A DNA stretch of 64,000 bases from Spirochaetia bacterium (GTDB taxonomy: Bacteria; Spirochaetota; Spirochaetia; CADAEX01). This document shows, piece by piece, positions 2 through 18,426 of this stretch. Under the pieces are notes generated by a model. It did no database searches, was not told the origin of the DNA, and saw only the letters and a list, made by a program, of their open reading frames with translations. Numbering within the stretch: the stretch's first letter is position 1; each line of letters begins with the position of its first letter. The position numbers and the translations under genes were made by a program. The stretch is taken from assembly GCA_963662265.2 (NCBI GenBank), contig CAXXHA010000014.1:1-64000 (forward strand), read 5' to 3'.

Positions 2-1201
2 TTCAAGAAGCTGAGCTTCAGGCATATCAATGGTTATCCAAAGGGATTCCTAAAACAAGAAAAAGAAAAGCCACTGAAAGTAAATAAAATACTTGATTTT
101 GATACATTTCTTTTTAAGCTCAAAAATATAGATTTTTCGTCGTATGAAATTAATCTTGTTTTAAAAACTCTTCAAGATCGGAATTTTATTTCAAGTTTTA
201 AATTAAAGGATAATTCAACTCATTTAGTATCATATCTTCTCGAATCCTGGGATTATGATAATTCTGAGATCATAAGGGAAAAGAAAGCCTTTAAGCACCG
301 AACCAGCCGTGCAAGATGTATTAAAATGACAAGTGATATTGAAAATCACTGGACAGAGTACTTCATTGATAAGAATCTTGAAGATCTAACAAAAAAGGAA
401 TTAAAAGCTTTTATTATTTTCTTATCTGAAAAGAAACTTGCAGCGAAAACAATTAATTCTATTTTTTCAGCTGGCAGTATTCCAATAAAGGCAGCTGTGG
501 AAAATGGTCTTATAAAAGAGGATATTACAAAAGGAATTATTAAAATCTCCGGAAAGTCCAAAAAACGGGGAATTCTTGAAGATAATGAGGTTCAGAGGCT
601 CTTTCATCTTGGAAAGTGGATTGATGAAAGGTATAGGACAGCTAACCTTTTATCGGCAACAACAGGTCTCAGAATGGGAGAAATAAGGGCGCTCAGGATT
701 CAAGATATTGAGGGTGACAAGCTAAATATTCAACACTCCTGGTGTCATATAGAAGATAAAATAAAATGCACTAAAACAGATGAAACAAGGTATGTCCCAA
801 TAATACCAGAGGTAAAAGAGGAACTTATGAACCTTATTATAATCAATCCATTTGGCCAGAATCCAGAAAACTTTATCTTCTTTTCATGGACTGATAAAGA
901 TAAACCCCTATATGATAACTTGATATTAAAAGCGTTAAAATCTGCGTTGAAATCTATAGGGATTAAAGAAGAAGAGAGGAAAAAGAGAAATATCGTATTC
1001 CATTCCTGGAGGCATTATCATGCTAAAAAAATGGCAGATGTTATAGATCAAAGGGCTATGTTGATTTCTGGTCACAAAAGTAAAGAGGTCTTTGAAACAT
1101 ATGCAAACCATCAGCAGGAGCAGGATTTTAAGGCTGCAGCTGATGCATCAGTTGAAGTATTCAGTAACATTCTTCAGTTTGATGATAAAATTATTTTATA
1201 A
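2..1201 (+). CDS. Tyrosine recombinase/integrase (5' part outside window; possible frameshift near 55-87)
   Basis: Catalytic motifs GLRMGE, HSWRH, SGH, TYANH; frame of ORF 326..1201 is open back to position 2 (includes WDYDNSEIIREK). Confidence 0.9.
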   Translation, partial: FKKLSFRHINGYPKGFLKQEKEKPLKVNKILDFDTFLFKLKNIDFSSYEINLVLKTLQDRNFISSFKLKDNSTHLVSYLLESWDYDNSEIIREKKAFKHRTSRARCIKMTSDIENHWTEYFIDKNLEDLTKKELKAFIIFLSEKKLAAKTINSIFSAGSIPIKAAVENGLIKEDITKGIIKISGKSKKRGILEDNEVQRLFHLGKWIDERYRTANLLSATTGLRMGEIRALRIQDIEGDKLNIQHSWCHIEDKIKCTKTDETRYVPIIPEVKEELMNLIIINPFGQNPENFIFFSWTDKDKPLYDNLILKALKSALKSIGIKEEERKKRNIVFHSWRHYHAKKMADVIDQRAMLISGHKSKEVFETYANHQQEQDFKAAADASVEVFSNILQFDDKIIL

Positions 1202-3691: not shown

Positions 3692-4609
3692 TTATCCAGC
3701 TTTGCCAATTTTCCCTATTTTCTTTTTTAGATTATCAAATTTACTTTTTACTAATTTTATATCTGCCTTACATGACTTATCAGGATACTGTGGTAGTAAA
3801 ACAGGTTTTTTATCAAACTTGCCACTTCTTATATAAGAGATCATATCATTTATTACAGTACAAAAAGTTTTAAAACGATATACTCTTATATCTGGTTCAT
3901 TCTTACTTTTCCTCGTATAAATCCAATTTATTGAATCATCGAAAAAAACATCTAAACAACGAATAATAAGATCTAAATCTTTACAATCTCTATAGATTTT
4001 AAGTGCTAATAATTTTTCTTTTGTTGTCGGGCTGCTCGTTATATTAAGGCGCTTATTCAACCTTTTATAATATTCCTCTGTTATAATTTTTACATATTTT
4101 TCTACTTTTACATTTTTTAATGGAGAAAAATATTTTTCCAGAGCTTTTTCTCTCTCTCTATTAATATCATTATCAAATTCAGAATCAATATAGTTAGTAT
4201 CATATTTATAGGGTATAGATATGGTATCAATAGGATATCTATATCCTACTTCTGCTGCAAAATTTAAAACGTTTTTTGGCAATTCTTTTAAAACAGCTTC
4301 AATACCAGTTTTTATTTTAATTCTCTTTTCAAATTGCTGATGCTTCGGCCATGTGGGAAGAATCACAAATTCATTATTATAGTGAAATGCTTTTCTATCT
4401 TTTTCAAATCTCATGATAATCTCTTCGACGGTTGATATTTCAAATCCAGAATCAAATGAAATCCTATTTTTCGTAATTTTATAAATACCTGCAATATTTG
4501 TTAAAGGATTGGTTAACAAATACATATATAAAAACTTTTCAGAGGGATTCAGTTCCATTATCCATTTATCATCCCAGAATGATGTTGAGATATATCGTTG
4601 TGTTGCCAT
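3692..4609 (-). CDS. Phage-type replication initiator/replisome organiser
   Basis: N-terminus MATQRYISTSFWDD...EKFLYMYLLTNP.TN.AGIY typical of phage replication-protein wHTH domains; AGGAG RBS. Confidence 0.75.
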   Translation of the reverse strand: MATQRYISTSFWDDKWIMELNPSEKFLYMYLLTNPLTNIAGIYKITKNRISFDSGFEISTVEEIIMRFEKDRKAFHYNNEFVILPTWPKHQQFEKRIKIKTGIEAVLKELPKNVLNFAAEVGYRYPIDTISIPYKYDTNYIDSEFDNDINREREKALEKYFSPLKNVKVEKYVKIITEEYYKRLNKRLNITSSPTTKEKLLALKIYRDCKDLDLIIRCLDVFFDDSINWIYTRKSKNEPDIRVYRFKTFCTVINDMISYIRSGKFDKKPVLLPQYPDKSCKADIKLVKSKFDNLKKKIGKIGKAG

Positions 4610-5215: not shown

Positions 5216-5677
5216 ATGTTCTATAATGAGGATATGTCAAGATTTTGGGATAATACTCTAAAAATTATGCAAAATAAAAATATCTCACAAGTTAATTTAG
5301 CTAATGCAATAGGGAAACAAAAAACAACAATAAATACTTGGATAAAAAATGATAGAATTCCTTCAGCTGATTATGCGATTAAAATTGCTGATTTTCTTAA
5401 TACTGACTTAAACTATCTGGTAACTGATAAGCACCAAGAAGATGAAATTCAAGAAATCAATATTTTAAAAAAAAATTGGAATACAAACAAAGATCTTTCT
5501 TTAGCAGTAAAGAATCTTTTAAAGCTTGATTACAATAGCCTTTTAATGGTTAATGGATATATTCAAGGTAAATTAAAAGATGCAGATGATCATTTGAAAA
5601 CATATATTTCAGATAATTCTTATAATTCTAATCTATTAGCTGCTGAAAATAATAAAGATTTATATGGTAAAAAATAA
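5216..5677 (+). CDS. XRE-family repressor (CI-like; start may be ATG 5234)
   Basis: ISQVNLANAIGKQKTTINTWIKNDRIPS...KIADFLNTDLNYLV HTH; divergent from xis/rep operon. Confidence 0.85.
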   Translation: MFYNEDMSRFWDNTLKIMQNKNISQVNLANAIGKQKTTINTWIKNDRIPSADYAIKIADFLNTDLNYLVTDKHQEDEIQEINILKKNWNTNKDLSLAVKNLLKLDYNSLLMVNGYIQGKLKDADDHLKTYISDNSYNSNLLAAENNKDLYGKK

Positions 5678-5970: not shown

Positions 5971-6585
5971 TCAGCCAAAGACTAGTTTTTCTGATTTATA
6001 AAATGTATAGCCTTCGTAGTGGTAGCTTGCATCGATACCTTTCATAAAAATATCTATGTCATTGATCCGTTCTGTGAGAGCTGTTTGTAATAAATATTTG
6101 ATTTCAATATCTTTCACAGGGCTTCTTTCCATGGCTTGTAGATAATCATTTTTATCAACATTGCTCCAATCGACAACCTGTTTCAATTCAGTTTTCAGAA
6201 TAAGATCAAGCCATATTCTCATGGAACGACCGTTGCCCTCTCTGAAAGGGTGAGCAACATTCATTTCGACATACTTTTCAACAATCTCGTCAAATGTCGT
6301 TTGTGGCATAGCATCAATATTTTTTAGTGATGCATTGATGTACATAATCGGGATAAAGCGGAATGAACCCTTTGAAATATTCACAGATCTGATCTGTCCA
6401 GCGAAGGGATATATTTCATCAAAAAGGTATTTGTGAATTTCAGAAATAGTCGTAAAACCTCCAGCTTCAAAACTATTTATAAAACCGCTTTTAAAAAGCT
6501 CTATAGCCTTTGTTTTGCTAATTTTTTCCTCTGCCTTTGCGAGCTGGACAGGATCAGCTATACCAAGAATATTTTCAAGAATCAT
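5971..6585 (-). CDS. fic: Fic-domain adenylyltransferase, class III (C-terminal inhibitory helix)
   Basis: Canonical HPFREGNGR motif and C-terminal SYHYEG matching (S/T)xxxE(G/N). Confidence 0.9.
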   Translation of the reverse strand: MILENILGIADPVQLAKAEEKISKTKAIELFKSGFINSFEAGGFTTISEIHKYLFDEIYPFAGQIRSVNISKGSFRFIPIMYINASLKNIDAMPQTTFDEIVEKYVEMNVAHPFREGNGRSMRIWLDLILKTELKQVVDWSNVDKNDYLQAMERSPVKDIEIKYLLQTALTERINDIDIFMKGIDASYHYEGYTFYKSEKLVFG

Positions 6586-7590: not shown

Positions 7591-8175
7591 CTATTTTCCT
7601 TCTTTGATATAGATCCCATCATTTGGAATATCATTCATATATGGAGGCAGTTCATCTGAAATTTTTATATAAGTTATTTTATGGTACTCATCTAAATAAT
7701 GGATATGTCCAGTTAACGCTCCTTCTTTTGAATAGAAAAAATAAGGGCGGGTGATTGCTTCTTTATCTCTTTGACCAAGGAAGACAGCTTTTTTGTCATT
7801 CGTTAGAACAAATATAGAGAAATCTCCACGTGTCCACCAACCATCACAATATTCTATGAACTCTGATACATTATCATATGAGTAATCTTCATCTATTCGT
7901 CCATAATTTGATTCAGCTACGATAAGGTATGAAAGGATTTCTCCGAATCGATATTGATGATAATCTACAATTCTCTCCATCGGTAAATAATCATCTCGTA
8001 AATAGAAAACAGTATTTATTAATTTTTCAGAAAGTAATTTTATTTCTTCTGTATCTCCCAAACTCTTAAAGAGTTCTATACTCTCATTGCTAACGACATA
8101 AACACCATTTCGAGATTGTGCAGATAAGCTATATACACAAAAAAGAAGTATAAATATTATAAGTACACGTCTCAT
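7591..8175 (-). CDS. Secreted hypothetical protein
   Basis: Signal-peptide-like MRRVLIIFILLFCVYSLSA; AGGAG RBS. Confidence 0.7.
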   Translation of the reverse strand: MRRVLIIFILLFCVYSLSAQSRNGVYVVSNESIELFKSLGDTEEIKLLSEKLINTVFYLRDDYLPMERIVDYHQYRFGEILSYLIVAESNYGRIDEDYSYDNVSEFIEYCDGWWTRGDFSIFVLTNDKKAVFLGQRDKEAITRPYFFYSKEGALTGHIHYLDEYHKITYIKISDELPPYMNDIPNDGIYIKEGK

Positions 8176-8239: not shown

Positions 8240-8827
8240 TTAACACCACCCATCAAGAAGATTGTACAATTCATTCACCAAAGCAGAACGTCTATCTCCA
8301 ACAGGTGTGCTCTCTAATTCCTTCTTAATCTCAATATGCCGCAATAATACCTTTTGGAAGGTAAAAGAATAATATTTTTCTCGCATCCAAACTAAATCAT
8401 CACCAGTTATAGCATCATGAATTCTCTCAGGTAGATAGTTGATATAATCAGGATATTCATCAGATGATGAATGCCACATATCAGCTTTTTCTATATCCTT
8501 TCCTAAGAGATGAGGAATGAGATAGATATTGGATAGCATAGTTCTGGCAAGTATATAATCCCCATCCTTCCCCATCCGGTGTAATATCAAGGCCCAACAA
8601 AGGAGAGCAAAAGGTTCACACATATCATCTGGTAATTCCTTTTCAAACCATTTCAGATATTCAGAAGACCTGCGATTATCTCCAAGGAGGAAGTAGAGAT
8701 AGAATAGATAGTACCTGGCACCGCCTCCATCATCTATGAAACCATGCTCTCTCTTAAAGGCTGAGAGTTTTGAGCGGATTCTTGTGATTCTGGATGATAT
8801 GCCTTTCGATGTTTTGGGGAAAGTTAT
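8240..8827 (-). CDS. Hypothetical protein downstream of hsdS; frame extends to an ATA codon with RBS (195 aa)
   Basis: ORF 8240..8623 is open for 68 further codons (ITFPKTSKGISSRI...DDGGGARYYL...); GAGGAA lies just upstream of ATA 8827-8825. Confidence 0.6.
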   Translation of the reverse strand: MTFPKTSKGISSRITRIRSKLSAFKREHGFIDDGGGARYYLFYLYFLLGDNRRSSEYLKWFEKELPDDMCEPFALLCWALILHRMGKDGDYILARTMLSNIYLIPHLLGKDIEKADMWHSSSDEYPDYINYLPERIHDAITGDDLVWMREKYYSFTFQKVLLRHIEIKKELESTPVGDRRSALVNELYNLLDGWC

Positions 8828-8830
8828 GAT

Positions 8831-10156
8831 TTATTCCTCAAATGCTTCTTTGAGAACTGTCTGCATTAGAAGAGCTGCTTCCTGCTGAGATTTAGTTGAT
8901 TGGACTTCCAGTTGATCAACAAGAATAAGAGCCTTTTTTATTCTCTCTACAGCTTTACAAGCTTCTTCATAGGGAGGTAAATAGAACTCTATGTCTCTGA
9001 TTGTACCCATTGATAGACTGGGTTGGGCTGTTGCTTTGATATGCTTAAAGAGTTCTTTCTGCCCCCTTGGTGACAAAAGAAAGTAGTTTAAGTACAAAAG
9101 GTTTATATAATCAAAGGCAAATGGATGACACTCAATCTTTGCGACATTAGGTGCAAGGTGCCATCTTTCGTTTTCATTGAAAAAGGCGACATCTCCAATA
9201 CCAGCTCCGATAAATGTAACAAGAAGAGCTTCTTTGGTTAAGGCACATCTTTCAAGCTGATATGATGTTTCACTATCTATATAAAGCAGATTTGTTTTAT
9301 CAATATCTATAGGTCGCACATTCTGTGCTCGAATTACAGGTATGTCACCAGTTTCAGAAAGATTAAAGTATTTAGTGTACTCAAATCCTGCTAATTTAGT
9401 TACGAATAAAACATCATCAATTTTAACCTTTTGCCAAGAAGGGGGAATTTCAAAATCATCAGGTAATGATTTTTGATTCTTGATTTTCTGAGCTTTTCTG
9501 ATCATCTTCTCTTTTACCAGACGCTCTTTTTCTGCTTTGATTCGGACCAGCAACTTTGATGCTGGTTCTATATCGTGATTCTCTTCACGCCACTTGGCAG
9601 TCAGTTTTCCAGAAATAGCATCCTGAAGGATTTGCTGCCGGAGTTTTTTCAGAACTATTTGCTGGAGTGAGATTTCGGAAGAGAGACTCCCTGTATATTT
9701 TTTCGTTTTCGTAAACAGACTAACCCATTCAAGTTGTTGCTCTGGTGACATTAGAGGAAACTCTACATTTTCAATTGCTTTTACTGACAGAGTTACATTT
9801 GCCATTCCTTTCATTTGAGAAACGAGTAGTTGTTCTTTGTAGATATCAAGGTAGTGATAAAGGAAGTTGGCATTTACTACTGATTGGTCTTCTGGTGTAA
9901 CTACTGCTAAGATAGAACCAACAGAAAATTTACCATCCTGATAATGAATTCTTTTTAGACTTGCGTGCCCGTGTCCTGTTGAAGAAACAACAGGTATAAT
10001 TACAGAAGGTTTATCAAAGTGATATTCATTATGCGAAAGTCTTTCTTCAGCAGTAGTCACAAGGGGGTAGTTCCCCTCTACTGCCTTTTTAATCCCAATT
10101 TTACCTTTGACCACTTTACAATAGTCACCGATTCTAACCATCATTATTGAGGACAT
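8831..10156 (-). CDS. hsdS: Type I RM specificity subunit
   Basis: Two TRDs with conserved helices LRQQILQDAISGKL and LLMQTVLKEAF; abuts hsdM. Confidence 0.92.
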   Translation of the reverse strand: MSSIMMVRIGDYCKVVKGKIGIKKAVEGNYPLVTTAEERLSHNEYHFDKPSVIIPVVSSTGHGHASLKRIHYQDGKFSVGSILAVVTPEDQSVVNANFLYHYLDIYKEQLLVSQMKGMANVTLSVKAIENVEFPLMSPEQQLEWVSLFTKTKKYTGSLSSEISLQQIVLKKLRQQILQDAISGKLTAKWREENHDIEPASKLLVRIKAEKERLVKEKMIRKAQKIKNQKSLPDDFEIPPSWQKVKIDDVLFVTKLAGFEYTKYFNLSETGDIPVIRAQNVRPIDIDKTNLLYIDSETSYQLERCALTKEALLVTFIGAGIGDVAFFNENERWHLAPNVAKIECHPFAFDYINLLYLNYFLLSPRGQKELFKHIKATAQPSLSMGTIRDIEFYLPPYEEACKAVERIKKALILVDQLEVQSTKSQQEAALLMQTVLKEAFEE

Positions 10157-11578
10157 TTACAATAGCTCCTCTTTCAATTTGGATAGAAGCTCATCGCTTT
10201 TCTGAAATGAGTTATGAAGCAAATTTAGTAATTCCGCAGAGCTATGTTCAAGCTCCTCTTCCTCTTTATTAGGATTCTTTATATCCAGATCCCAGCCACG
10301 TCCTACAATCGTATCAATTGATACCTTCCAAGCAAGTTCTGACTCTTCGCGGTTGTTCCACCATTCCTTTATAGGATTGAACTCGTCAATTCTGATTGGC
10401 TTTGTTTTACTATATGATTTCTGACCTTCAGGTAGTTTGTGTTCGTAGTACCAAATCTCTTTGGTCGGTTCTCCTTTGGTAAAGAAAAGCAGATTGGTTG
10501 CTACTGTTGCATAAGGAGAGAATACTGAATTGGGTAGTCGGATTATGGTGTGTAGATTACAATCGGTTAACCATTTCTCACGGATTCGCTGTTTTACACC
10601 TTCCCCAGTCAGTGAACCATCAGGAAGAACGATAGCAGCTCTTCCCCCTTGTTTTAGAAGATGAACCATTAAGATTAAGAAGAGATCAGCTGATTCTTTT
10701 GTTCTAAAGTTTTGAGGGAAATTCCCTTCATTCCCATTTGCGACAACACCACCAAATGGAGGATTCGCAAGGATAGCATCGACTCTATCCCGTTCTCTAT
10801 ATTCGTTATATGGTTTAGAAAGAGTATCATCAAATGTTAGATTAGGTATTTCTATATCATGGAGTATCAGATTTGTTGTTGCAAGGAGATATGGAAGAGG
10901 TTTATATTCCCATCCAACTACATTATTCTGAATTATTTCACGATCTTTAGGTGTTTTTACCTGTTTTTTTAAATGTTCGATAGCACATGTGAGAAATCCT
11001 CCAGTACCACAAGCAGGATCAAGTAACTTCTCTCCTAACTGAATATCCATAATATCACTCATAAACTGTGTTACAGCCCTGGGAGTATAAAACTCTCCGG
11101 ATTTCCCAGCACTTTGAAGCTCTTTAAGCATCCCTTCATAAATATCACCAAAATGATGTCTATCTTCTGATATGTTAAAATCAATTTCATTAAATTTGTT
11201 TAGAACTTTACGAAGACAAATTCCTGATTTCATATAGTTGTGGTTTCCTTCAAACACTTCTCTTAGAATAAGTGCTCTTTGGTTCCCTGTTACATCTATA
11301 TCACGAAGTCCTGGAAAAAGTTTATTATCTACAAAATTAAGAAGTTCTTCTCCTGTCATACCTTCATCATTTCCTGCCCAATTATTCCAGTGGTATTCAT
11401 CAGGAAGAGAAGATGTGTAATTTTCTTCCATCATCTCAAGTTCATCTTCTTTATCTGAGAATATTTTTAAGAAGATCATCCATCCAAGCTGTTCAATACG
11501 CTGGGCATCTCCATTTAGCCCTGTATCTTCCCACATAATTTGTCGGATAGATTTCATCCATCCTGAAAAGTTGACCAT
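10157..11578 (-). CDS. hsdM: Type I RM N6-adenine methyltransferase
   Basis: GEFYTPR, DPACGTGGFL, NPPF motifs. Confidence 0.95.
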   Translation of the reverse strand: MVNFSGWMKSIRQIMWEDTGLNGDAQRIEQLGWMIFLKIFSDKEDELEMMEENYTSSLPDEYHWNNWAGNDEGMTGEELLNFVDNKLFPGLRDIDVTGNQRALILREVFEGNHNYMKSGICLRKVLNKFNEIDFNISEDRHHFGDIYEGMLKELQSAGKSGEFYTPRAVTQFMSDIMDIQLGEKLLDPACGTGGFLTCAIEHLKKQVKTPKDREIIQNNVVGWEYKPLPYLLATTNLILHDIEIPNLTFDDTLSKPYNEYRERDRVDAILANPPFGGVVANGNEGNFPQNFRTKESADLFLILMVHLLKQGGRAAIVLPDGSLTGEGVKQRIREKWLTDCNLHTIIRLPNSVFSPYATVATNLLFFTKGEPTKEIWYYEHKLPEGQKSYSKTKPIRIDEFNPIKEWWNNREESELAWKVSIDTIVGRGWDLDIKNPNKEEEELEHSSAELLNLLHNSFQKSDELLSKLKEELL

Positions 11579-14032
11579 TTAATTTGCTTCCTTATATAAT
11601 TCCTGTTCAAGTTCTCGAACTGCTTCCAGGTAATTGTATTTATTTTTAAAACTTTTGTTAATTATTTCCATTGGAGATCCAAACTCATTGAAAGGGTGAA
11701 TTTTTAACACTTTCATATCTTCAATTGCTCGTATATCCTCATCAGCATACTTATCAAGTAGAGCTTCTAATACTGAACGAGCAGAATCTCCATATTTAGT
11801 GAAGTAGTTTCTCTTTTTTACGTTTTCAGCTCTTTCTCTTCTCGTTAGAGGAGGCATATCATAGGCTGTATGACAGATTATATCAAATAAGTCACATTCT
11901 CTTCCAACAGCATTTAATAATTCCTCAACAAGAACACCTTTATCCTCTAATTCCAGAATTATAGCTTCTTTTTTTTCTGCTTCATTCCACTTATTAAGAA
12001 AATCATTCAAATCTCTATAATTTCTGGTTATTTGTTCTTTTGTATAATCCTTCAAACTTACTGTAATTGGCTTTCCATCACTATCAAAATACATATTTCT
12101 TTCATTTAGAATTGAAACTTCAACACCGTTTACATAGATTTTTTCACGAGGTTCTCCTGTGGTATCGTCATCATCTGGAGTACCATCAGGTTCCGGGAAT
12201 TCTATTTCTTCTCCTGTCACTTCATCAATAATTGGCTCATCATTTTCTGTTTCTTCATCTTCAATATCTCCAAGATCATCATCTTCTCCAGGGTGATAGA
12301 TTGAAACAGGATCTCCATCAAAGTCAGGATCTGCAAAAAGGTCTGTTACATTTCTAAAATCAAGTATTGTAAAATGGGTTTTTCCATATTCTTCATCAAT
12401 ACGAGTTCCTCTTCCTATAATTTGCTTAAACTCTGTCATTGACTTAATATTGCTATCAAGAACTATAAGTTTACAGGTTTTTGCATCTACTCCAGTTGTC
12501 ATAAGTTTACTTGTAGTTGCAATAACTGGATAAGGTTCTTCTGGATTTATAAAGTTATCAAGTTCTCTTTTACCTTCTTCATCATCACCAGTAATTTTCA
12601 TTATATATTTATAATTATCTTTGACCAAATCTGCATTTTGATTAGAGAGTTTTGTTCGCATTCCATTTGCATGTTCAATATCGACACAGAAGACAATTGT
12701 TTTAGAAAATCTGTCAGTACCCTTGAGAAACTCAGTAATCTTTTGAGATACCAATTCTCTTCTTTCATCAAAGACAATATTCGTATCAAAATCTTTACGA
12801 TTATAAATTCTATCTTCAACAGGATTACCATTTTTATCAAGTGTTCCTTTTGGAGGTCGCCATCCTTCAAGATCCACATTAAGACCAACACGGACTACTC
12901 GGTAAGGTGCAAGAAATCCATCACTTATACCCTGTTTGAGAGAGTATGTATAAACTGGATCTCCAAAATAATCGATATTTGAAACATCTTTTGTTTCTTT
13001 TGGTGTTGCGGTAAGACCAATATGAGTTGCAGATGAGAAATATCTTAGTATTTCTCTCCATGCACTATCTTCTGCTGCACTTCCTCGATGACACTCATCT
13101 ATGACAATAAGATCAAAGAAGTCTGGTGAAAAATCTTTATATGCATCTTCTACTTCACCACTATTAGTTAATCCTTGATATAAACCTAAGAAGACTTCAT
13201 ATGCTTTATCTGAGCTGTCAATTCCTCTTTTATTATTTGATACAAGCTCATCAGAACCATCTGCATTATTTACAATTTTCTTTTTAATAATTGTCATGCT
13301 CTCTTTGAAGTGTTTGAAATCGCCTCTTCGTGTTTGATCTATGAGAGCTGTTCTATCTGCAAGGAAAAGTATTCTTTTCTTAGTTCCACTTTTCCATAAT
13401 CTGTGGATTATTTGAAAAGCGGTATAAGTTTTTCCAGTCCCAGTAGCCATAACAAGTAAAATACGGTTTTGTCCTTTTGCGATTGCTTCAATTGCTCTGT
13501 TTATTGCATTTTGCTGATAGTATCGTGGTGTCCTACCAGATCCATCCAAGAAATAATCCTGTTCAACTACTTTCCTTTGTTCAGGAGTTGTAATTCCCTT
13601 GTAATGGCAGTATTTTTCCCATAATTCGTCAGGATTAGGAAAATTTTCTAGATTAAGTTCTTCTTCAATTTTCTCATTAGAAGTTTTGTCATGAAAAAGA
13701 AATCCATCACCATTTGATGAAAATACAAATGGTATATCAAGGATTTCAGAGTATTCAAGAGCTTGCTGCATTCCAGCTCCGAGAGCATGTTTATTATCTT
13801 TTGCTTCAATAATTGCTATAGGAAGATTTGTTTTATAATATAGAATGTAATCAGCTCTTTTTCTTTTTCCTCTCATTGACATGTTGCCACGAACATATAT
13901 ACGTCCATCAGTAAAAGAGACTTCTTCTCTTACCTGTTTTTGGATGTTCCACCCGGATTTTTGAAGGGCAGGTGTAATAAACTTTGTACAGATATCTCGT
14001 TCAGATAATTCTTTTTTACTTATTGTTGTCAT
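11579..14032 (-). CDS. hsdR: Type I RM restriction subunit (EcoAI/EcoEI-like)
   Basis: ADY..IEAK nuclease motif, MATGTGKT, DECHRG, TATP, QIIGRGTR helicase motifs. Confidence 0.95.
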   Translation of the reverse strand: MTTISKKELSERDICTKFITPALQKSGWNIQKQVREEVSFTDGRIYVRGNMSMRGKRKRADYILYYKTNLPIAIIEAKDNKHALGAGMQQALEYSEILDIPFVFSSNGDGFLFHDKTSNEKIEEELNLENFPNPDELWEKYCHYKGITTPEQRKVVEQDYFLDGSGRTPRYYQQNAINRAIEAIAKGQNRILLVMATGTGKTYTAFQIIHRLWKSGTKKRILFLADRTALIDQTRRGDFKHFKESMTIIKKKIVNNADGSDELVSNNKRGIDSSDKAYEVFLGLYQGLTNSGEVEDAYKDFSPDFFDLIVIDECHRGSAAEDSAWREILRYFSSATHIGLTATPKETKDVSNIDYFGDPVYTYSLKQGISDGFLAPYRVVRVGLNVDLEGWRPPKGTLDKNGNPVEDRIYNRKDFDTNIVFDERRELVSQKITEFLKGTDRFSKTIVFCVDIEHANGMRTKLSNQNADLVKDNYKYIMKITGDDEEGKRELDNFINPEEPYPVIATTSKLMTTGVDAKTCKLIVLDSNIKSMTEFKQIIGRGTRIDEEYGKTHFTILDFRNVTDLFADPDFDGDPVSIYHPGEDDDLGDIEDEETENDEPIIDEVTGEEIEFPEPDGTPDDDDTTGEPREKIYVNGVEVSILNERNMYFDSDGKPITVSLKDYTKEQITRNYRDLNDFLNKWNEAEKKEAIILELEDKGVLVEELLNAVGRECDLFDIICHTAYDMPPLTRRERAENVKKRNYFTKYGDSARSVLEALLDKYADEDIRAIEDMKVLKIHPFNEFGSPMEIINKSFKNKYNYLEAVRELEQELYKEAN

Positions 14033-14341
14033 AATGAGTCTCCATTTTCACTGAAATGTACTTTTGTTCATTAAGAGTATATCAGGTAACTGATATTAAT
14101 TCATTTAATTTTGTGGTATATAATTATGAGATTTGAATGTGGAAGAATTTCGTAATTCAAGGAGTTATTTCTTTCTTGAATAGAATAGCGAAAAATTACC
14201 ATCTTACAAGATTTCATAGTGTGTGCCAGGACTCAAAAAGATTAAATACATGACTTTTTGCTTAATTTAGGCGATAATCAGTAAAGGATTATGTGAGATT
14301 TCATGCATAATATCATTATTTTTACCCTTTGGAGTATCATT

Positions 14342-14650
14342 TTGGATAAATTTTGGAAATCTGCATTAGCAGTCGGTGGAGTTAGTGCAATTGGAGCATT
14401 TATATTTTTAGGTTTATATAAAGAATGGCTCAAACTTGCGATTTTCAACGAACTGAGCGGTGATCAGACTTATGTATTAATGATCATTTTCCTTGTGCTT
14501 ACATTTTGCAGTTTGATAGCTTTTATATTCGCTTTCATAAAATCGAAGCAAGATCCAAAGCCTTCGATTGAACAAAACATTTCGGGCAAAGGTATCGGAG
14601 TTATTAGTACTGGTGACTCAGCGAAGATTAAAATCAACAAGAAGAAATAA
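14342..14650 (+). CDS. Small 2-TM membrane protein with C-terminal motif shared with downstream LmuA-like protein (putative effector)
   Basis: Two hydrophobic segments (SALAVGGVSAIGAFIFLGLY; YVLMIIFLVLTFCSLIAFIFAFI); GGAG at 14331-14334 favours TTG 14342 over ATG 14303; tail SIEQNISGKGIGVISTGDSAKIKIN. Confidence 0.8.
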   Translation: MDKFWKSALAVGGVSAIGAFIFLGLYKEWLKLAIFNELSGDQTYVLMIIFLVLTFCSLIAFIFAFIKSKQDPKPSIEQNISGKGIGVISTGDSAKIKINKKK

Positions 14651-14655
14651 AGAAT

Positions 14656-15246
14656 ATGGCAGATGGAATAAAACAGGATTTAAGTGATGAAAGTATTGGT
14701 GCTATCAGCACTGGTGATTATAGTCCAATAACAATTAATGTAACCAATAATAAATCTGAAATTGATAGCTTGCTTAAACCCCTTTTAATAGAAATGGTAG
14801 ATAGTGTAAAAACTTCATATCGTAACCGAGCAACAGAACTTCCTCCAGATATTGAAGAAAAAATCGACTATAACAGAGTAAAAGTATTTAAGGATGATCT
14901 TCGTGATGCGATAAATTATGTTATTATCATCGATGAAATGATTGAGAATCTGAACCATGAGGATGAAGATGCCGCCGATTCAATTCTTTGGAGTATTAAT
15001 CAACGTTATAGAGACATTAAAAAAGAGTTATTTCTTGAACATAAAATAGACCCCTCAGATCATAAACAAGTTATTAAATGTATAAATTCTCATGCTGATA
15101 TAATTATCAACGCTGTAAAAGATTCAATTGAAAGTGACATTCCTTCAGTTGAAGGAAAGAAGATTGAAATCGTGCGTTTCTGTATTTTACTAATTGTTTG
15201 TTATGGCTTCATTACATGCAATATTCTGGAGCGACCAATTTCATGA
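14656..15246 (+). CDS. ABC-3C/Lamassu LmuA-like protein: short N-terminal motif plus CTD, no catalytic effector domain
   Basis: PPDIEEKIDYNRV and LIVCYGFITCNILERP resemble ABC-3C CTDs; first gene of a CTD-MC-ABC triad. Confidence 0.8.
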   Translation: MADGIKQDLSDESIGAISTGDYSPITINVTNNKSEIDSLLKPLLIEMVDSVKTSYRNRATELPPDIEEKIDYNRVKVFKDDLRDAINYVIIIDEMIENLNHEDEDAADSILWSINQRYRDIKKELFLEHKIDPSDHKQVIKCINSHADIIINAVKDSIESDIPSVEGKKIEIVRFCILLIVCYGFITCNILERPIS

Positions 15247-15470
15247 TAAAACCAACATTAAACAATATATCAGGTTCTCTTTACTGTGTAGGTGCATTTG
15301 TTCTTTCTGTGTTGAATGAAAAAGACAATATTTCTTTGGAAGAGCTATATGAGCTGTATAAGGAAAGGCATGGGTACATCTCATTGAATGTATTGCAGTT
15401 GGCAATTACATGGTTATATGTAATTGATTCCTGTTATTTGGCTGAGGATGGGTTAATAAAATGCTCTTAG
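15243..15470 (+). CDS. ABC-3C middle component (LmuC-like)
   Basis: 75 aa MIKPT...SLYCVGAFVL...LEELY...LAITWLYVID; ATGA overlap with upstream gene and overlap with ATPase. Confidence 0.8.
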   Translation: MIKPTLNNISGSLYCVGAFVLSVLNEKDNISLEELYELYKERHGYISLNVLQLAITWLYVIDSCYLAEDGLIKCS

Positions 15471-17158
15471 ATCGTTTAGTCGTACTCCATAACGGTGTAT
15501 CACTTAGGGAAATTACATTCCATGAAAATCTTACAATTATTACAAGTCGGGAGTTAGAAGGAAACAAGATTGGGAAAAGTACTGTCTTGAGGGTTATCAA
15601 TTTTTGTTTAGGATCAGATGGAAAGTCTATATGGTTAGATCCTATAAAAAAAGAGGAAAATGTTGAAGTAAAGTCGTTTGTTCTTACTGAAAATGTTGAT
15701 TTCATTCTATTTCTGAAAAGAGGCAAAGAAAGAATCGAATTAAAACGTTCTTTTGTTATTAGTGAAACGAAAAATGGACCACGTATTAAGCGTCAAGGGT
15801 GGATAAATGGGGAACCATTTCATGGCAATAAAAAATACACAACACATTTGAGTGAATTGATAGGCCATCTATCAGATAAGCCTTCTTATCGACAGTTAAA
15901 GAACCGAGTAATAAAAATAGATAATGGTGAAGAGTATAATTCCCTAAAATATTTAAATTTTGGAACGTCTGATGATGTTTATAGGCTTATTTATTCATCT
16001 CTTTTTGATTTTTCTGGTATTAGTAAAGTAAGATCAGAAATTGATATCAAAGCTGAGATTGAATCTTGCAAAGACCGTAGAAATGCAATACTGGACGGGC
16101 AAAAATATATAGATTACAAAAAAAAGCTTGATGAAATTGATCTAGCTCTTGCAGAATTATACGATGCTGAAAGTAAATTTGACATAAAGAACCCTCATTT
16201 ACGAGAGATGGAAGCACTAAAGATAATTAGAGGTGAGATTGTTCAGGAAAGTAATAAGATTTCGGCGATTGATATAAAACTTGACTATAATCATAGGTCA
16301 ATAGAACGATATAAAAATCAAAAAAGTGATCTTGATGTCTCTTTAGTTGAAAATATGTACCAAGAAGCGAAAAGCATTATACCTGGTCTACAAAAAAGTC
16401 TTGAAGATGTCATTAGCTTTTACAATAGCTTTCAAGATAATAAAATCAATTATCTACTAAAATTGCAGAAGGACATTGAATCTGAGAGGACTGTAATACA
16501 AGCCTCTTTAGAATCAAAGTTAGACACCGAAAAGGGATTATTTAAAACTCTTAGTGATCAAGGATATCTTACTGATTTTATTGTCTTGGAAAAAGAGATT
16601 CAGAGTAAAAAGGAAGAACGAGGTAAGATCCTATATGTAATAAATGAAGTCCAATATATCAATGGTGAAGTGAAAAGATTAGAAGGCGAATTAGAAAGTG
16701 TTCTATCCTCAATAAGTGAAAATAAAGATGATTTTTCAGATAATGTTGCATTATTCAATACATATTTTGAAGAGTTTTCTAAATCAATTTTTAAGGATTA
16801 TACAAATAGTCTTGGGTATGATGTGGATGAAAGTAATGACATAACATTCTATATTAAGAATGGAGAGAAAAATACTGGTGAAGGAAATCCGAGAGCAGAA
16901 TCTATGATATTTGATATTGCATTTGTCAAATATCTTATGGAGAAAGGGAAAAAGTTCTTCTACTTTTCCATTCAAGATAGTCTTGAAGCCATTGATGAAG
17001 AAAAACTGAAAACCATTTTTAATAAAGTGATTAAACACAATATTCAAGTCGTAATCAGTATACTCAGAGATAAAATATCAGATGCTCTTGACGATGAATT
17101 AAAGGACCATATCAAATTAGAGTTGAGTCCAGATAGTAAATTCTTCAAGTTACCTTAA
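15461..17158 (+). CDS. SMC/Rad50-like ABC ATPase (DUF2326-type, short LmuB-like)
   Basis: Walker A-like GNKIGKST, long coiled coil, signature-like TGEG and Walker B-like FSIQDS; 565 aa. Confidence 0.85.
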   Translation: MLLDRLVVLHNGVSLREITFHENLTIITSRELEGNKIGKSTVLRVINFCLGSDGKSIWLDPIKKEENVEVKSFVLTENVDFILFLKRGKERIELKRSFVISETKNGPRIKRQGWINGEPFHGNKKYTTHLSELIGHLSDKPSYRQLKNRVIKIDNGEEYNSLKYLNFGTSDDVYRLIYSSLFDFSGISKVRSEIDIKAEIESCKDRRNAILDGQKYIDYKKKLDEIDLALAELYDAESKFDIKNPHLREMEALKIIRGEIVQESNKISAIDIKLDYNHRSIERYKNQKSDLDVSLVENMYQEAKSIIPGLQKSLEDVISFYNSFQDNKINYLLKLQKDIESERTVIQASLESKLDTEKGLFKTLSDQGYLTDFIVLEKEIQSKKEERGKILYVINEVQYINGEVKRLEGELESVLSSISENKDDFSDNVALFNTYFEEFSKSIFKDYTNSLGYDVDESNDITFYIKNGEKNTGEGNPRAESMIFDIAFVKYLMEKGKKFFYFSIQDSLEAIDEEKLKTIFNKVIKHNIQVVISILRDKISDALDDELKDHIKLELSPDSKFFKLP

Positions 17159-17961
17159 TTCTGGTTCTACCGAGAGTGTAGAATAGCGAAAGATTTCCGC
17201 ATTCAATTTATACGGGGATTTCTGCTGTGCCTACCATTATAGACAACAATATCTTATTTTAATGGATACATAACAGGAAAAAACTACATAATCCTATTTA
17301 TGTAGTATAACGGTTCGAGTCCATATTTTTTACTGTGGAAAACTATCGGAACCTCTAAATGTAAGTGGGTGAATCTGGGAGTAAGGTTATGCTTCAGTTA
17401 TTTGTAATATTTATTGAAAAATTCTTAGTAAAATAAGAAAAAGGGAGTGATTTTCTTTTATTATTTTTTATCAGTAATATCATTACTATGAAGATACATA
17501 TCCCTTAATTCAAAGAAATCATTACTTCTGTCATAGTCATTTCGATCAAACAATCCAATTCATCTTAATTCTTTTGAATACCCCATTATACTTTTGTATT
17601 AATAATTCTAGATTATTTTCAACTATTATTCGTAATAATTTTTCATATCTGCTGCACATTATCATTACTTTTTTGTTTCAGTTGTCAACACCGCTCTAAA
17701 ACTGCAGTTTAGCACCGTCGCTCACACAGTTTAATAAATGTATGATTCATAATAAGGTTTCAATAAGCCCTTCCGAAAGATCATATTAATTTTTTTCTTA
17801 CGTTATGCAAAGGATGGTCAGCAAGTATGGTCAAAAATTAGATATTTTAGATAAAAACTGCTAAAATCAGCTATAATGACTTTGACACGAAAATTGTTAA
17901 AGTCTTATAATACAATAAAATAGATCATTAAAGATCATATTGGATAAAGTGTCGGGGCGTT

Positions 17962-18019: not shown

Positions 18020-18426
18020 TTATTTGTTCCTTCTTATTACTTCTCTGAATAAAAATGGTTGTATTTCAGGATAAGTTAAATTATCAGGAAGTTGATTAAA
18101 AGAACTTACTTCAGATATTTTAAAATCCAGCTTACCTGAATAGCTTTTGATTTCGGCGAAGAAAAGTCTTCCATAACTTGTTTTATTATCTACAGAGACT
18201 GAATAGTCACATATTTCCACCAGTTTAAAATCCTTTGCTCCTGTTTCTTCAACCAGCTCTCTTTTCGCAGCTTCAAATGAGGATTCACCTTCATATGACC
18301 GCCCGGTATTTTTCTTATATCTCTGTTTTTATGTTTAAAAAAAACATATCCATTTTTATCTTCAGATATAATAACAGAATATTTTAAAGAAGCTTGATGT
18401 TCTAATTCGTGAAATTTTATGACCAC
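18020..18426 (-). pseudogene. NUDIX hydrolase, frameshifted
   Basis: IPGGH in one frame and EGESSFEAAKRELVEETG (Nudix box) in another; shift near 18295. Confidence 0.75.

Follow-up and report, generated by a model that had tools for sequence, protein, structure and literature searches.

A small membrane protein and an effector-less CTD10 adaptor share a terminal motif in a candidate split-effector ABC-3C/short-Lamassu-type operon

A four-gene operon of ABC-3C type

The stretch of DNA analysed here (the window) comprises 64,000 nucleotides (nt), positions 1 to 64,000 of the forward strand of contig CAXXHA010000014.1 (assembly GCA_963662265.2), from a Spirochaetia bacterium. It contains a compact operon that encodes a small transmembrane (TM) protein, a 196-amino-acid (aa) protein with a CTD10 domain, the ABC-3C middle component 6 (MC6) and an ATPase resembling ATP-binding cassette (ABC) and structural maintenance of chromosomes (SMC) proteins (Table 1). 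The four genes lie on the same strand and are tightly packed: 5 nt separate the TM and CTD10 genes, the CTD10 and MC6 genes overlap in an ATGA, and the MC6 and ATPase genes share 10 nt. A scan for promoters and terminators was uninformative, as it returned 13 promoter-like sites where 22.3 were expected. An earlier, sequence-only reading of the window had noticed that the C-terminus of the TM protein resembles the N-terminus of the protein encoded next to it, and had proposed a Lamassu-type defence operon that acts through amyloid signalling.

Table 1. Features of the operon and of its surroundings in the window
Feature	Position	Strand	Basis or remarks
Small membrane protein, proposed trans effector	14303..14650	+	Open reading frame; 115 aa from ATG 14303, or 102 aa from TTG 14342
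Hydrophobic segment 1 of the TM protein, residues 20-39	14360..14419	+	Kyte-Doolittle 19-residue windows >1.6
Hydrophobic segment 2 of the TM protein, residues 57-79	14471..14539	+	Kyte-Doolittle windows up to 3.03
C-terminal motif of the small membrane protein (SIEQNISGKGIGVISTGDSAKIKIN)	14564..14638	+	25-residue match to the CTD10 N-terminus
N-terminal motif of the CTD10 protein (GIKQDLSDESIGAISTGDYSPITIN)	14665..14739	+	25-residue match to the membrane protein tail
Effector-less CTD10 adaptor protein, 196 aa, at the position of the ABC-3C effector component/LmuA	14656..15246	+	Pfam CTD10
CTD10 helical domain, residues 58-192	14827..15231	+	Pfam best stretch; conserved C-terminal YGFIxCxILExP
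ABC-3C middle component 6 (MC6)	15243..15470	+	Pfam MC6; start codon shared with the CTD10 stop in ATGA
ABC/SMC-like ATPase, 565 aa, DUF2326, proposed sensor	15461..17158	+	Pfam DUF2326
Three open reading frames read as type I restriction-modification hsdS, hsdM, hsdR, immediately upstream of the operon	8831..14032	-	Reading of the translations only
Tyrosine integrase at the window start	326-1201	+	Pfam Phage_integrase 6.9e-17
tRNA T-arm-like fragment ACGGTTCGAGTCC, ~150 nt past the ATPase stop	17310-17322	+	Possible end of an integrated island

The ABC-3C systems were reportedly defined by Krishnan et al. in 2020, and two genes of the operon fall into their families above the Pfam cut-offs: MC6, one of the middle components (E=1.5e-12, 47.7 bits against a cut-off of 27.2), and the DUF2326 ATPase (E=1.7e-11). 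Walker A (GNxxGKST), a signature-like sGxG and Walker B (hhhhD) were conserved and the CxxC hook was absent in all nine aligned ATPases, so that the DUF2326 match together with these motifs points to an ABC ATPase with a coiled-coil insert, as ABC-3C has. In the PADLOC models the best match of the ATPase was PDC-M68B (2.6e-17), and no match was returned for the TM protein, the CTD10 protein or MC6. The Lamassu-type nature of the operon claimed by the sequence-only reading was borne out in that both Pfam assignments passed and ABC-3C is placed within the Lamassu superfamily in a review.

The relatives of the CTD10 protein were collected by an exhaustive phmmer search of a library of 1.84 billion representative sequences, which returned 93 homologues at E≤0.001; a word-based search had given three proteins only, and phmmer was used instead. 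Among the homologues, proteins encoded at three other loci exceeded the Pfam cut-off for CTD10 (L034, 92.1 bits; L037, 112.3 bits; L032, 44.7 bits), and PF20275 is annotated on a 93% identical relative of the window protein. Through these homologues the protein can be recognised as an ABC-3C third component with its family-specific C-terminal domain (CTD). No effector domain of the kind that ABC-3C proteins carry fused N-terminally to the CTD was present: the stretch ahead of the CTD region has only some 30 residues, and no domain could be identified in it. Eighty members of the family are equally short (170-225 aa, with a Met start), their CTD10 body being preceded by a brief and variable N-terminus rich in G, N and Q. 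By contrast, in four longer relatives and in three proteins encoded at the collected loci, a Trypsin, Mrr_cat, HNH or SMEK_N domain stands ahead of CTD10, at the very position taken by the motif in the short proteins, an all-in-one arrangement of the sort that accompanies amyloid-signalling pairs. Thus, the short CTD10 proteins correspond to an effector-docking domain without its effector, and since the relatives carry fused effector domains where the motif stands, the membrane protein is most likely an effector supplied in trans. Two repeat proteins of 3655 and 1212 aa in the phmmer list were compositional matches and were dropped. The N-termini of the short family (P0019-P0094) fall, by eye, into recurring types such as GIAIxNxG...PVTI, GxNNQQAxxDIxN, NSGxIAxxINGxV and GDxNxVAGxDIxI, and the partners of few of them are known (L026, L029, L033).

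The start of the TM gene can be placed at either of two codons. The TTG at 14342 has a GGAG 8 nt upstream, and the near relatives of the window protein (P0138-P0140) are 102 aa long; therefore, the gene may begin there instead of at the upstream ATG. The loop between the two hydrophobic segments has a net charge of -2 and the tail one of +6, and by the positive-inside rule the motif-bearing tail should therefore lie in the cytoplasm. Library scans assigned the protein to no Pfam, NCBIfam or PADLOC family, and its own family of 2-TM proteins comprises 52 clusters, every one unnamed or "hypothetical" and lacking Pfam domains. In one relative, P0145 (185 aa), the 2-TM module is kept (61% identity over 58% of the query) and an unrelated domain of about 100 aa stands at the C-terminus in place of the motif, indicating that the module is used in another context too.

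Taken together, the operon is best explained, as far as its sequence allows, as an ABC-3C/short-Lamassu-type system with a split effector.

Matching and co-varying motifs in two neighbouring proteins

In the window the two motifs align without gaps, and 13 of 25 residues are identical, which is the top 25-mer match between the two proteins. When both proteins were shuffled 500 times, the best 25-mer match had 6-10 identities and never more than 10. The translations agree with the two peptides as first described, and the claim that their likeness is kept at the protein level and does not stem from a fresh DNA duplication also stood: the codons differ at 11 of the 13 identical positions (e.g., Ser TCG and AGT), and the motifs share 40 of 75 bases.

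To find out how general the pairing is, homologous loci were collected from genomes, metagenomes, plasmids and viral contigs. The genome loci were retrieved with a profile made from an 11-sequence alignment, as a scan of the genome contigs with the single protein found nothing. Six loci were left out of the counts: L022 and L028 had no upstream DNA, the TM gene of L024 was cut, L036 and L038 were decayed, and L031 is the same place as L004. In the loci with short CTD10 proteins, the gene directly upstream on the same strand encodes a small protein that has one or two hydrophobic segments, and the last ~25 residues of this protein resemble the first ~25 of the CTD10 protein. Such a matching pair of tail and N-terminus was present in all 28 complete loci with upstream sequence, the window included, which represent 15 clusters. 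The species genomes contributed seven loci (7/7, with an upstream protein of 65-147 aa that has one or two hydrophobic segments), the metagenomes 17 (17/17 with upstream sequence, 20 loci in total), viral contigs a single one and plasmids two (Clostridium and Collinsella). In L024, which comes in addition to the 28 complete pairs, the contig end cuts the TM gene and the tail still matches. Thus, the upstream TM gene was present in every locus where it could be assessed, and homologues without it or without the paired motif, which would have spoken against the sequence-only reading, were not met among the complete assessable loci. The hosts that could be named include Moritella, Marinomonas, Pseudomonas and Oceanobacter, Gammaproteobacteria being among them, besides the Clostridium and Collinsella plasmids. 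The proteins in the upstream slot are not all alike: distant systems use 1-TM proteins unrelated to the 2-TM family of the window, so at least two unrelated TM designs occur, and the constant feature of the slot is a small membrane protein with a matching tail, not a single protein family.

Several loci deserve separate description. Of the matches in 11 plasmid records, the six that were examined (H1, H4, H6, H7, H8, H9) comprised two split systems (L033, L035), two SMEK-fused ones (L034, L037), a decayed one (L036) and one disrupted by an insertion sequence (L038). L036, from an Acinetobacter plasmid, has retained a TM protein of 77 aa and a CTD remnant of 91 aa, with its ATPase spread over two open reading frames, and in L038, from a Caballeronia plasmid, the ATPase is truncated and transposase genes lie on the flanks. 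On the Collinsella plasmid (L035, 1611-1790) the motif lies ahead of the annotated start of the CTD10-type gene. The reading frame is already open at 1611, and translation from the ATG at 1635 gives an N-terminus matching the tail of the 65-aa TM protein encoded upstream. In public annotation, N-termini with short motifs may be missed through the choice of start codon. Among 400 genomes sampled from the class of L004, the CTD10 profile matched two, the genome of L004 itself and one with an HNH-fused form. The ATPase was found in no phage record.

The sequence-only reading had also asked whether the two motifs vary together from operon to operon, and they do. Over the 15 clusters, formed at 60% identity, the mean score was 53.9 for cognate and 28.2 for non-cognate combinations, and the observed sum was not reached in any of 50,000 permutations; the cognate partner ranked first in nine of the 15 rows and 10 of the 15 columns. 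Within the motif class of the window (10 dereplicated pairs in a joint alignment of 24 columns) the identity was 11.7 in cognate and 7.1 in non-cognate pairs (0/100,000 permutations), and the cognate excess was located at variable columns, such as column 12 (0.62 vs 0.16) and column 26 (0.38 vs 0.07). If the motif copies are older than the split of the lineages, independent drift would have left cognate and non-cognate distances equal; the excess would therefore imply selection for likeness. Recent gene conversion can be set aside, because, of the 166 aligned positions at which the 15 pairs agree in residue, 97 differ in codon; the nucleotide identity was 0.49-0.67. Profiles built from the TM tails and from the CTD10 N-termini also recognised each other in hhalign (probability 97.0%, E=1.2e-10, 27 columns), and the joint consensus of tails and N-termini can be written approximately as h-x-h-x-A-x-x-x-G-I-A-V-x-N/S-S/T-G-x-x-N-x-h-x-h. 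Considering these results, a direct functional coupling of the two proteins through their motifs is very probable, and the view that a homotypic motif couples the membrane effector to an effector-less Lamassu-type adaptor is well supported.

The composition of the motif regions could be compared in the 80 short family members. Relative to the rest of the protein, residues 2-33 contain 2.2-3 times as much G (8.8 vs 2.9%), N (15.6 vs 7.0%) and Q (6.1 vs 2.8%), and they are depleted in L (4.8 vs 8.5%) and K (5.3 vs 9.0%), and also in E, F, W and C. The BASS motifs of bacterial amyloid-signalling pairs are described as stretches of about 25 aa rich in Q, N, G, V and I and poor in K, P and L, which occur in collinear gene pairs mostly ≤10 bp apart or overlapping, all-in-one fusions existing as well (bioRxiv 10.1101/2020.01.06.895854).

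Surroundings of the operon

Between the integrase and the putative restriction-modification genes lie a CI-like helix-turn-helix repressor (5216-5677, +) and a Fic/DOC protein (5971-6585, -), while the neighbouring open reading frames at 1341-1922, 1956-2402, 3692-4609, 7591-8175 and 8240-8623 matched no Pfam family. The integrase and the T-arm-like fragment may mark the two ends of an integrated island of about 17 kb with defence genes; a whole tRNA was not found in the window. A search of 60 relatives of the window's genome did not turn up the ATPase, which is what one would expect of a mobile defence island. Beyond the operon, two small open reading frames of 78 and 66 aa (18020-18426, -), which lie next to each other with overlapping ends, matched no Pfam family; they may be one frameshifted gene.

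Proposed mechanism, alternatives and implications

The operon resembles Lamassu/ABC-3C systems in its three-component core, in which an SMC-like ABC ATPase (about 565 aa) is joined by a small middle component and by a third protein with a core-binding C-terminal domain. Walker B of the window ATPase reads hhhhDS, as in Lamassu, and the HNH, SMEK, Mrr and protease effectors borne by the CTD10 relatives are among those listed for short Lamassu. It differs from Lamassu in that the protein at the LmuA position has no effector domain and that the operon has a fourth gene, for a membrane protein. The description "LmuA-like" given to the CTD10 protein by the sequence-only reading is therefore apt for the architecture but not for the sequence, as the protein carries the CTD10 of ABC-3C and has no PADLOC match to LmuA. 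A Lamassu clade without an effector domain has been reported, and the accessible text names neither a partner nor an explanation for it (bioRxiv 10.1101/2025.04.02.646746); the family of the window may be this clade. According to two reports, the oligomerisation domain of LmuA is sequestered in Lamassu by two LmuB and LmuC, and freed LmuA forms tetramers held together mainly via the C-terminal domains (bioRxiv 10.1101/2025.03.14.643221; bioRxiv 10.1101/2025.04.02.646746).

The second point of comparison is provided by the amyloid-signalling systems. Like the NLR/Bell pairs with motifs BASS1-10 and the NWD2/HET-S pair (Dyrka et al.), the loci described here combine an effector C-terminus that matches the N-terminus on the receptor side, adjacent collinear genes with very short gaps, a G/N/Q-rich motif of about 20-25 aa and fused variants. 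The receptors of those systems are STAND NTPases (NB-ARC or NACHT), whereas here the motif is borne not by an oligomerising STAND NLR but by the CTD10 adaptor of an ABC/SMC-like ATPase. Also, the BASS pairs were reported from multicellular Actinobacteria and Cyanobacteria, while the present ones occur in Gammaproteobacteria, Clostridium, Collinsella and the low-GC genome of the window. The closest counterpart is Bab/Agp (BASS11) of E. coli ECOR25, a two-gene amyloid-signalling pair shown experimentally to mediate abortive infection; its 109-aa effector has a hydrophobic helix at the N-terminus and the motif at the C-terminus (Ibarlosa et al., bioRxiv 10.1101/2024.11.07.622273). Both systems have adjacent collinear genes in a defence island and an effector of about 100 aa with a C-terminal motif of about 23 aa that is repeated at the N-terminus on the sensor side. 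Here, however, the motif lies on a 196-aa adaptor that would dock to a separate core of MC6 and ABC/SMC-like ATPase, and the effector has true TM segments and no detected relationship to Bell, unlike that of Bab/Agp. Amyloid formation, defence and membrane effects, which the operon of the window would be predicted to share, have been shown for Bab/Agp.

On these grounds the following model can be proposed. The DUF2326 ATPase and MC6 would form the sensor core, and the 196-aa protein would be its adaptor, which retains the effector-docking CTD10 and bears a G/N/S/I-rich motif of about 23 residues in place of the N-terminal effector domain. At rest, the CTD10 domain would be held by the ATPase-MC6 complex. 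Upon a trigger perceived by the sensor, the CTD10 proteins would be freed and would oligomerise as LmuA does, whereby four N-terminal motifs would be gathered, in analogy to the oligomerisation of the NLR in NWD2/HET-S. The gathered motifs could then adopt a stacked, in-register β-arch (amyloid-like) fold and recruit or template the motif on the tails of the membrane proteins, and the TM helices clustered in this way may damage the membrane and lead to abortive infection. The clustering of the motif by oligomerisation, already put forward in the sequence-only reading, agrees with the published tetramerisation of LmuA on activation and extends to CTD10 by analogy only. Physical binding of the motifs, their cross-β fold, oligomerisation of CTD10, membrane damage and an anti-phage function are steps that we infer. 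Amyloid templating by the motif pair is plausible, and the identical rather than complementary upkeep of the two copies would be expected if selection acted for in-register parallel stacking. For a split-effector ABC-3C/short-Lamassu system working by the full amyloid-templating model, we regard the balance of the evidence as slightly favourable.

All the evidence of coupling, from pairing and co-variation to the all-in-one relatives, would fit equally well with a static tether, in which the motifs form a stable, finite, non-amyloid β-sheet heterocomplex that substitutes non-covalently for a fusion, so that oligomerisation of CTD10 would cluster TM proteins bound beforehand. In resting Lamassu the N-terminal domain of LmuA barely contacts the core (bioRxiv 10.1101/2025.04.02.646746), so that a free motif could already hold one tail, and the TM proteins resemble proteins that reside in the membrane constitutively. 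Two observations speak for amyloid templating instead, neither of them decisive: the sequences are kept alike and not complementary, with the same residues at variable columns, which is the signature expected of in-register parallel stacking, and in their richness in G, N and Q and their length (about 23-25 residues) the motifs agree with published amyloid-signalling motifs. We therefore hold the tether to be possible but rather unlikely.

It is improbable that the membrane protein is no effector at all and serves as an anchor, sensor or regulator by which the ABC-3C complex is brought to the membrane (e.g., near the site of phage DNA entry) or held in check, the activity residing elsewhere. 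Such a role would suit the lack of a recognisable toxic domain in the TM proteins, but the motif stands exactly where the relatives have their nuclease or protease domains, the four-gene operon offers no other candidate effector, the unrelated 1-TM and 2-TM designs in the same slot fit an interchangeable effector, and the HET-S and Bab effectors are small TM proteins with amyloid tails (bioRxiv 10.1101/2024.11.07.622273). Finally, although the motifs are compositionally biased and the 3655-aa repeat protein matched the N-terminal region of the query through composition, a likeness due to chance, to low complexity or to a recent local duplication of DNA, devoid of any functional link, has a practically negligible probability, as it is contradicted by the shuffles (0/500), by the cognate-specific pairing in 28/28 loci and its permutations, and by the codon differences.

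A number of observations weigh against the amyloid-templating model or against the assignment on which it builds. The CTD10 match of the window protein itself (E=3e-4, 21.8 bits) is under the Pfam cut-off of 28.1; at E≤1 the protein matched none of the PADLOC families, the LmuA model included; and the match of the ATPase to the PADLOC model of LmuB (PDLC00254, 4.3e-7) covers residues 17-55 only, that is, the Walker A region. Because of these three results, the mechanism of LmuA tetramerisation can be carried over to CTD10 as no more than an analogy. A sequence search of PDB gave only a chance-level match for the CTD10 profile (E=0.1) and none for the ATPase. Cognate matches were weak in three of the 15 clusters (L003, L027 and L029, with scores of 23-32 and row ranks from third to sixth). 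Proline is unchanged in the N-terminal regions (3.1 vs 3.1%), unlike in the description of BASS. The TM protein has true hydrophobic segments and showed no relationship to HeLo or Bell (no HeLo/Hell/Bell family of Pfam at E≤1); it may need no refolding switch. A fused TM-CTD10 form was not present among the longer proteins, which is weak evidence.

In the part of the literature that could be searched, no paper was found that joins Lamassu, ABC-3C, the ABC ATPase or DUF2326 to amyloid signalling or LmuA to a membrane effector; the original description of ABC-3C may already mention the architecture. The wider claim has three parts, and for all of them jointly we see the chances as evenly divided: that amyloid (prion-like) signalling extends beyond NLR-type and TGP receptors and links SMC-like DNA sensors of Lamassu/ABC-3C to membrane-disrupting effectors, that the effector-less short Lamassu clade is a split system with a tiny membrane effector, and that the motif classes serve as a swappable, pair-specific addressing code that insulates co-resident systems from each other. 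The liberation and oligomerisation switch of LmuA would supply a physical reason why the N-terminal motifs meet only after sensing. With its four genes, motifs of about 23 residues and many natural variants of the pair, the system is small enough for pair specificity to be directly testable. The amyloid-templating model also offers a concrete candidate answer to the question of what the Lamassu clade without an effector domain does. If it is true, SMC-like ABC ATPases would be, via a small adaptor, a third unrelated class of receptors that use amyloid-type motif pairs, which would suggest that the amyloid-type principle is general in prokaryotic immunity.

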